Shown one piece after another: positions 58,605-58,861 of a stretch of DNA of 64,000 nt. How positions within the stretch are numbered: position 1 is the stretch's first letter; each line of letters starts with the position of its first letter. Origin of the DNA: Escherichia coli (GTDB lineage Bacteria > Pseudomonadota > Gammaproteobacteria > Enterobacterales > Enterobacteriaceae); NCBI RefSeq assembly GCF_048403405.1, contig NZ_CP183129.1, one strand, 5' to 3'. Made by a program: the position numbers and the translations under genes. A model generated the notes under the pieces. That model had not been told where the DNA came from. It ran no database searches and was given only the letters and a program-made list of their open reading frames with translations.

Positions 58605-58775
58605 TGTTTTTATTTATTCAATGAATTTATATTTCGTTGAATAGATAACATTTTCATGAATATTAGATGCTGGTTTTGTGACTGATGTCGAATATTTGAA
58701 TGTCGGCTTGAAAAATAAGCCGACCATCTCTTTAATTAAACACAATTCCGTGTAATGTATACACATTAGTTAATC

Positions 58776-58804
58776 ATCTTGTAACTGTTAAATCAGGCAA
58801 GGCA
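58776..58804 (+). promoter_or_regulatory. RAT-like (ribonucleic antiterminator) element overlapping the 5' arm of the leader terminator
   Basis: ATCTTGTAACTGTTAAATCAGGCAAGGCA resembles the recalled BglG/SacY-type RAT consensus (GGATTGTTACTG.TAAAGCAGGCAAAACC) and overlaps the terminator left arm GGCAAGGCA. Confidence 0.45.
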
Positions 58805-58850
58805 ATGTTTGAAGTAATTATTACTTCTGACGTGCCTTGCCTTTTTTTTT
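58796..58850 (+). terminator. Leader intrinsic terminator immediately upstream of the antiterminator gene
   Basis: 9-bp stem GGCAAGGCA / TGCCTTGCC enclosing an inner GAAGT/ACTTC hairpin, followed by T9 (58842-58850); ends 11 nt before the ATG at 58862. Confidence 0.7.
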
Positions 58851-58861
58851 GGAGTCATGGA

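Follow-up and report, generated by a model that had tools for sequence, protein, structure and literature searches.

The 257-bp intergenic region at positions 58605–58861 of the window, the 64,000-nt stretch of the Escherichia coli contig NZ_CP183129.1 (assembly GCF_048403405.1) analyzed here, is very probably the amiC edge of an old islet that has neither an integrase nor flanking repeats, and it also serves as the control region of the sugar-uptake PTS operon that makes up the islet. The region lies between amiC (57351–58604, + strand), which encodes an N-acetylmuramoyl-L-alanine amidase, and the first operon gene, which begins at 58862. The junction is a genuine presence/absence boundary between core and accessory DNA, and nothing at it is missing or misassembled.

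The operon islet between amiC and metV

In the RefSeq annotation of identical genomes, amiC is the last core gene before the islet. In 400-nt windows the GC content is 0.51–0.57 across amiC, 0.40 at 58400–58799, and 0.32–0.37 from 58600 to about 59900; the drop at the amiC stop is from about 0.53 to 0.35. When the window is aligned with K-12, homology stops 2 nt past the amiC TGA, at 58606, and picks up again at the tRNA 3′ end. The initial annotation had AT-rich accessory DNA beginning within about 100 bp of the amiC stop, an estimate that the end of K-12 homology shows to be conservative. Its statement that initiator tRNA-Met genes follow amiC in K-12 is also borne out. The K-12 order is amiC, a 73-bp spacer, metV-metW-metZ, and mltA. 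The K-12 tRNA genes are transcribed towards amiC, so that the 3′ end of metV faces amiC. The islet replaces the 73-bp spacer in its entirety, that is, everything between a point 2 nt past the amiC stop and the final base of metV.

The five islet genes, all on the + strand, are as follows. The first, at 58862–59686, encodes a BglG/LicT-family transcription antiterminator with a CAT RNA-binding domain (Pfam CAT_RBD, 9.8e-15) and a PRD (1.1e-27); it matches the NCBIfam LicT model at 2.6e-68, below the LicT and GlcT equivalog cut-offs. The second, at 59718–61298, encodes a MalX-like EIICB permease of the glucose/maltose family, with Pfam PTS_EIIC and PTS_EIIB domains and a match to NCBIfam PTS-IIBC-malX (4.9e-162) whose 540 bits fall short of the cut-off of 632. 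A PatB/MalY-family PLP-dependent C-S lyase is encoded at 61298–62482 (NCBIfam TIGR04350; 363.7 bits, the cut-off being 340), and a SIS-domain, sugar-phosphate isomerase-like protein at 62475–63071 (Pfam SIS, 1.4e-26). The latter resembles KpsF/GutQ but is without CBS domains, and its 193 bits against NCBIfam kpsF are below the cut-off of 203.7. The fifth gene, D-2-hydroxyacid/phosphoglycerate-dehydrogenase-like (Pfam 2-Hacid_dh_C, 4.9e-47), occupies 63143–64000 and is cut by the window end. By Pfam and NCBIfam, all five genes are metabolic or regulatory. The GC content of the operon is 0.405 versus 0.51–0.53 in the flanks. At the other end of the window, bases 1 to about 19000 are a low-GC ETT2 type III secretion cluster.

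Many of 5,426 complete E. coli genomes are 100% identical to the window over 57200–64000, and three of these were opened for layout. In all three, amiC is followed by the five genes and a 78-bp spacer, then by the three tRNA-fMet genes metV, metW, and metZ, and finally by mltA-tcdA in the K-12 order. The accessory segment in these genomes is the five-gene operon alone, 5,564 bp, and the annotation shows no integrase anywhere from amiC to mltA. One of the three, strain 4621, matches the whole window collinearly at 99.99%, save for one IS200C copy; positions past 64000 are virtual and are carried over from this strain. The dehydrogenase gene ends at virtual position 64090, and metV, which is outside the window itself, begins at virtual position 64169, with its 3′ end 78 bp from the last operon gene. 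The tRNA-Met genes that the initial annotation expected beyond the window are therefore present, about 169 nt past its end in this near-identical genome. The integrase that it also expected is not: none is annotated in the three identical genomes or in any of the four site configurations described below, the T6SS island included. The initial annotation had further held that tRNA or core genes in collinear order immediately downstream would speak against an island boundary. Such genes are found, 5.6 kb from amiC, yet the junction is still a genuine presence/absence boundary.

The junction was searched for the marks of site-specific integration. ARAGORN finds no tRNA or tmRNA in the entire 64-kb window, in line with the earlier reading that the junction holds no tRNA-like sequence. 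When the amiC-side junction was compared with its tRNA-side counterpart (spacer plus metV), the best ungapped direct match scored 8 (shuffle mean 9.4) and the best ungapped inverted match 10 (shuffle mean 9.6). Gapped alignment of 58605–58861 with tRNA-fMet scores 7.0 (shuffle mean 7.2). The positive control for the junction-repeat test, the T6SS island of strain NRG 857C, scores 41. With the junction matches at or near the shuffle means, the absence of a recognizable direct repeat at this boundary, already remarked upon in the initial annotation, is upheld. A repeat search within 58560–58900 found no direct-repeat family, and neither flanking repeats, direct or inverted, nor traces of a tRNA were found in the operon versions of E. 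coli, E. whittamii, Atlantibacter, and Citrobacter. In Atlantibacter, a 16/22 match of the left junction to the T-arm region of tRNA-fMet was rejected as not significant, being equalled by 9–19% of shuffles.

The leader and predicted antitermination of the operon

The segment 58605–58861 (+ strand) joins the amiC-side edge of the islet to the 5′ regulatory region of the operon. Conservation with the Atlantibacter and Citrobacter operon copies starts around 58676–58725, and the first 70–120 nt after amiC are Escherichia-specific. An AT-rich, imperfect 25-nt inverted repeat, 76% complementary, was found by the repeat search at 58601–58657, astride the amiC stop codon. Its sequence is unique in the window and Escherichia-specific, that is, absent from Atlantibacter and Citrobacter. 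Further in, at 58702–58724 (+ strand), the sole terminator-like match of a consensus scan is a small G+C hairpin with a weak T tail, which may be an amiC terminator. The loop of this hairpin includes the −35 hexamer of a candidate σ70 promoter at 58708–58736 (+ strand), read from the sequence as TTGAAA, 17 nt, TTTAAT. A σ70 consensus scan of 58400–59000 called no promoter; the candidate was missed because position 2 of its −10 hexamer is T. The core of the −10 region, T.ATT, is invariant in six copies. A possible CRP site, TGTGA-N6-TCGAA at 58677–58692, was considered and rejected: the left half-site is conserved, but the distance from the center of the site to the predicted start downstream is about 58.5 nt, not 61.5.

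Downstream of the candidate promoter lies a ribonucleic antiterminator (RAT) hairpin at 58777–58802 (+ strand), identified by its core pattern and fold and predicted to be the site for the operon’s own LicT-like protein. The core pattern, TTGTNACYRN6YRGGCAA, was derived from the K-12 bglG leader. It has one match in the window, at 58779–58800, where 0.00 are expected. In every operon locus there is one match upstream of the PRD gene, and the pattern also occurs in the K-12 bglG leader itself and, beyond the window, in ten operon-bearing loci of six genera. By itself, the RAT folds as a two-stem hairpin spanning 58777–58802.

RNA folding places an intrinsic terminator at 58795–58850 (+ strand), with a stem of 58795–58817 paired to 58821–58842 and followed by a T run. 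The 106-nt stretch 58760–58865 folds at −32.6 kcal/mol (z = −4.55), and the 77-nt leader from the RAT to the T run folds at −28.2 kcal/mol (z = −6.4). The 5′ arm of the terminator overlaps the 3′ part of the RAT, and the two folds are mutually exclusive. This overlap is kept in five divergent leaders with differing stem sequences. In the Atlantibacter, Citrobacter, Enterobacter, and Enterococcus leaders, the RAT is kept while the terminator stems differ in a mutually compensating manner. A permissive Rfam scan of 58300–59100 gave only chance matches below gathering scores; Rfam has no curated RAT family to match against. The best of these, a ciliate telomerase RNA (E = 0.094), just catches the two hairpins and was discarded.

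From these elements we infer substrate-dependent antitermination of the operon, by analogy with the known antiterminators. The promoter, at the position proposed above, would drive the leader RNA of the operon, and by default transcription would end at the terminator at 58795–58850 unless the product of the first gene binds the RAT. By analogy with BglG, SacY, and LicT, the cognate EIICB and HPr would set the activity of the CAT-PRD antiterminator by phosphorylating it. The operon terminator would also block read-through from amiC, and such a block could account for the tolerated loss of the K-12-type amiC terminator. As predicted from its sequence, the leader is an arrangement of the BglG/SacY/LicT type, ordinary and already known, and the RAT-terminator mechanism has been described (PMC1635312). 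The RAT-terminator leader offers a direct handle for an inducer search.

Distribution, age, and arrival of the islet

Among the 5,426 complete E. coli genomes, the site occurs in four configurations. It is empty and of the K-12 type in 3,500 genomes; the operon directly adjoins metV, with no T6SS island, in 598; operon and T6SS island occur together in 1,087; and the T6SS island is present without the operon in 249. In total, the operon adjoins amiC in 1,686 genomes, about a third, including UPEC and EPEC strains sampled; E2348/69 has the operon-tRNA arrangement. The T6SS island, about 29 kb, sits between the operon and metV where both are present, and where it occurs alone it is inside a K-12-type spacer. 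Its amiC-side end opens with TGGTTGCGGGGGCC, which repeats the final 14 nt of the tRNA and flanks the island in both the operon-bearing and the K-12-spacer backgrounds; in NRG 857C the perfect repeat reaches 39 nt. The initial annotation had suggested looking for repeats of the tRNA 3′ end. Such a repeat does exist at the locus, but it flanks the T6SS island only, and not the operon. Nor do the operon and the T6SS island resemble each other at their left ends (z = −0.5). Since all four combinations exist, operon and T6SS island are independent modules, and the T6SS island is a separate element, integrated later at the metV 3′ end in many strains.

The age of the islet was judged from its divergence relative to the flanks. 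Nucleotide identities between the window type and NRG 857C are 97.8% for amiC and 95.0–97.4% for the operon genes; the corresponding values are 93.5% and 89.6–95.1% for E. whittamii, and 92.7% and 90.3–92.6% for strain E69, the MalY/PatB gene being left out of all these ranges. That gene is a divergence outlier, at 85.9–88.3% in all three comparisons. As a side observation, it is 87.4% identical between alleles that elsewhere are 95–97% identical. The left junction is the same in the window type, NRG 857C, E. whittamii, and E69. Operon divergence that tracks the flanks, together with a shared left junction across Escherichia lineages, indicates that the insertion is old; the comparison covers these four lineages. 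Salmonella has the empty arrangement, as follows: amiC, a 109-bp spacer, tRNA-fMet, and mltA. Its tRNA terminator is homologous to that of K-12 (z = 16.7), and because the K-12-type terminator is thus common to Salmonella, the operon and empty alleles are both old. The amiC contexts of Kluyvera and Klebsiella are rearranged, with cob/pdu genes after amiC, and are therefore uninformative on the ancestral state. We infer that spread and loss of the islet within E. coli proceed by ordinary homologous recombination in the conserved flanks, that is, amiC on one side and the tRNA genes and mltA on the other.

A scan of genome contigs found the operon in only seven loci, and neither Salmonella nor the other Escherichia species had a representative among these. 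E. whittamii and Atlantibacter hermannii both carry the operon at the E. coli site, the A. hermannii order being recD-argA-amiC-operon-three tRNA-fMet genes-mltA-tcdA. In two Citrobacter species the operon adjoins a tRNA-Asp gene, which is the aspV hot spot, with fadE and yafV homologues on one side and dnaQ, rnhA, gloB, and mltD homologues on the other. An Enterobacter species and Enterococcus termitis have partial operons without the dehydrogenase gene; in the latter species, the operon GC of 0.367 equals that of its flank, 0.364. At 60–86% identity, the EIICB subfamily is found only in a few Enterobacteriaceae and in Clostridioides difficile, Clostridium, Longicatena, and Enterococcus, and the next tier of homologues is at 46%. 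The gene order in C. difficile is CAT/PRD, EIICB, aminotransferase, SIS, EIIA. Three tandem RATs with a period of 104 nt were also observed in C. difficile. The base composition of the operon and its nearest relatives suggest a source among low-GC Firmicutes, from which it appears to have crossed.

The tRNA side of the islet carries a distinct spacer. The 78-bp operon-type spacer bears no relation to that of K-12 (z = 1.7); homology was seen instead with the Atlantibacter spacer (z = 7.3) and with the end of the T6SS island nearest the tRNA (z = 9.6–15). Operon islet and T6SS island share a homologous tRNA-side end module of about 55–95 bp (AAAAAACCGCAA...TTGCGGTTT...ATTCTAA), and K-12 has a 23/25-nt match to the operon-type metV spacer module downstream of aspV.

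The initial annotation had taken the PTS operon for the far end of a large tRNA-anchored island whose tRNA and integrase, along with the attachment repeats, are to be found past the window end. The core/accessory boundary and the association with a tRNA have stood, but the larger island with its integrase has not, and we consider this explanation extremely improbable. It is true that metV lies past the window end, that in 1,087 other genomes the T6SS island with its tRNA 3′-end repeat separates the operon from metV, and that c3385–c3410 has been handled as one 32-kb island (PMC2831201, PMC3573123). Against this, metV follows the last operon gene after 78 bp in the three genomes that are identical to the window over 57200–64000, one of which is 99.99% collinear with all of it, whereas the T6SS-bearing B2-type alleles are just 87–97% identical to the window across the operon genes. 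In addition, an integrase is annotated in no configuration, and the independence of the two modules is evident from the four combinations. It should be noted that in this five-gene PTS operon an integrase or attachment repeats are not to be expected. Another proposal is that the operon is ancestral at the site, with K-12-like lineages having deleted it. The operon does co-diverge with its flanks, has the same junction in E. whittamii and E69, and finds a likewise occupied site in Atlantibacter. Nevertheless, the K-12 spacer is not simply a part of the operon-type sequence, its tRNA terminator is common to Salmonella with its empty arrangement, the operon GC departs from that of the flanks, and the scan placed the operon in only seven loci, with the representatives of other Escherichia species and Salmonella not among them. 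Ancestral presence is thus distinctly unlikely.

Two routes of arrival deserve to be taken more seriously, each as a tentative possibility. In one, the islet is a relic of site-specific integration. That is, the operon entered the metV 3′ end as cargo, as the T6SS island did later, and the integrase and an amiC-side attachment copy (K-12-type spacer plus a 14-nt tRNA fragment) were subsequently deleted up to the amiC stop. The operon abuts a tRNA 3′ end at two hot spots, namely aspV (Citrobacter) and metV (Escherichia and Atlantibacter); its tRNA-side spacer resembles the end of the repeat-bearing T6SS island and not the K-12/Salmonella spacer; and serial accretion at one tRNA is directly seen in the operon-plus-T6SS configuration. 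On the other hand, no integrase, integrase fragment, or tRNA remnant was found in the versions from five species, the tRNA-adjacent gene is the dehydrogenase, where an integrase would normally sit, the deletion must have stopped precisely at the stop codon, and the Citrobacter tRNA-side spacer is of a different type. The other route, which we hold to be possible to the same degree, is recombinational import, with no site-specific step, from an enterobacterial genus with the operon beside tRNA-fMet, the invariant tRNA genes serving as an anchor for homology and the amiC end being closed by an illegitimate join or one over short homology. This would suit the identical gene order in Atlantibacter, the 99.6–100% identity of the tRNA genes between lineages, the two unrelated spacer types that travel with accessory DNA, and a right boundary exactly at the tRNA end opposite a left boundary without a repeat. 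However, the E. coli operon is equidistant from the Atlantibacter and Citrobacter copies (67–86% amino-acid identity), which leaves no plausible donor, and amiC is E. coli-like to its stop codon, with no mosaic tract. One-sided homology-facilitated recombination is not known from the amiC-metV locus. The metV hot spot, the Citrobacter aspV site, and the T6SS-like spacer fit decayed site-specific integration as well as recombinational replacement. It is tempting to suppose that the operon islet and the T6SS island were successive cargoes brought to metV by one family of elements targeting tRNA ends, with an integrase acting in trans or lost, and a related element may act at aspV. This remains a speculative proposal, and an improbable one. 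If it were true, the repeat-less amiC junction would be the remnant left after deletion of the distal attachment copy of the first element.

Comparison with known systems

The islet is already in the literature, and nothing about it will surprise the specialist. A six-gene set, c3405–c3410, annotated as “PTS system, maltose/glucose specific”, has been described within PAI-CFT073-metV (nomenclature of Lloyd et al.) and is retained in UPEC strains, E2348/69, and SMS-3-5 (PMC2831201). PAI-CFT073-metV as a whole is c3385–c3410, a single island of 32 kb (PMC3573123), and the T6SS downstream of metV has also been described (PMC3032704, as “ETSS2”; PMC2907695). By published description and strain distribution, the islet probably corresponds to c3405–c3410. 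The likeness extends to the site (downstream of metV, beside amiC), the gene content, and the strain distribution, with E2348/69 confirmed here. Deletion of c3405–c3410 reportedly causes a fitness defect (Lloyd et al. 2009). In contrast to the published drawing of PAI-CFT073-metV as one 32-kb unit, two independent modules are seen here, the operon being alone in 598 genomes and the T6SS island in 249. The tRNA-end repeats belong to the T6SS module only, and the window strain has only the operon. The published island is thus a composite of two independent modules, a point relevant for annotation.

Regarding regulation, the closest parallels are bglGFB of E. coli and LicT, SacY, and GlcT of Bacillus subtilis, in which a CAT-PRD antiterminator gene is likewise beside the cognate PTS permease and a leader RAT overlaps an intrinsic terminator; the RAT core pattern is identical to that of the K-12 bglG leader. 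The bglGFB system has a β-glucoside EII, whereas the islet has an EIICB of the MalX/glucose family, and the downstream enzymes of the islet, a PatB/MalY lyase, a SIS protein, and a 2-hydroxyacid dehydrogenase, set it apart from all of these systems. In its enzymes the islet is closer to E. coli malX-malY, where a MalX-family EIICB also adjoins a PatB/MalY-family C-S lyase. There, control is by the MalI repressor, while the islet has an antiterminator and a predicted RAT; moreover, the islet adds the SIS and dehydrogenase genes, and its EIICB is below the MalX cut-off. As an insertion, the islet has in common with integrase-type tRNA islands and with the metV T6SS island a tRNA 3′-end hot spot, atypical GC, and presence/absence polymorphism. 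It differs from integrase-type islands in being only 5.6 kb, without an integrase and without a direct repeat, and from the metV T6SS island, which also has no annotated integrase, in that the latter carries the 14-nt repeat.

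The T6SS island and the tRNA genes at metV

At metV, one of the tandem tRNA-fMet genes, lies a T6SS island of about 29 kb that is bounded on each side by a direct repeat of 14 nt, TGGTTGCGGGGGCC, corresponding to the 3′ end of tRNA-fMet. Copies of this repeat lie at 21027–21040 and 6987–7000 of the two NRG 857C loci (L003 and L005, respectively) and at 10251–10264 of L006. In NRG 857C, the perfect repeat flanking the island extends to 39 nt. No integrase is present among the annotated genes of the island. The island occurs together with the PTS operon in 1,087 genomes and without it in 249.

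Genomes differ in how many tandem tRNA-fMet genes they have here (L001, L003/L005, L014, L017, and L018). K-12, the window type, Atlantibacter, and strain E69 each carry three, and NRG 857C carries two. E. whittamii has at least two, the sequence examined stopping 36 nt past the second, and the Salmonella assemblies have one or two.

Repeats and matches near amiC and the tRNA genes

An imperfect 25-nt inverted repeat, 76% complementary, spans the amiC stop codon at 58601–58657; it is kept among the Escherichia copies and is not conserved in other genera. A match of 23 of 25 nt, GAATTCAAATACAAAAAAACCGCAA, connects the operon-type spacer downstream of metV with the terminator region 3′ of the K-12 tRNA-Asp gene aspV (z = 6.5; L001 26905–26929 and L024 1044–1068, respectively). 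Since the match is short and A-rich, it may represent convergence between terminators.

The ETT2 block and strain 4621

An extended block of low GC, 0.31–0.40, occupies approximately positions 1–19000 of the window. In strain 4621, which is collinear with the window at 99.99%, this block is the ETT2 type III secretion cluster, whose members include EscV, SctN, EprH, and YgeH and several of whose genes have frameshifts. Between galR and aas, strain 4621 also carries a copy of IS200C, which the window lacks at 30243–30259. This is the sole structural difference between the two across the 64 kb.

Divergence within the operon and its C. difficile homologue

The PatB/MalY gene (61298–62482) is a divergence outlier, the window-type allele being 87.4% identical to the B2-type allele of NRG 857C, against 95–97% for the remaining operon genes. 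Comparisons with E. whittamii and with strain E69 give the same pattern, which may stem from diversifying selection or from an internal recombination tract.

In the homologous operon of Clostridioides difficile, the core of the ribonucleic antiterminator hairpin (RAT) occurs three times in tandem at a spacing of 104 nt (L022 1280–1509), between the antiterminator and EIICB genes. The C. difficile operon differs in that it lacks the dehydrogenase gene and contains an EIIA gene of its own.
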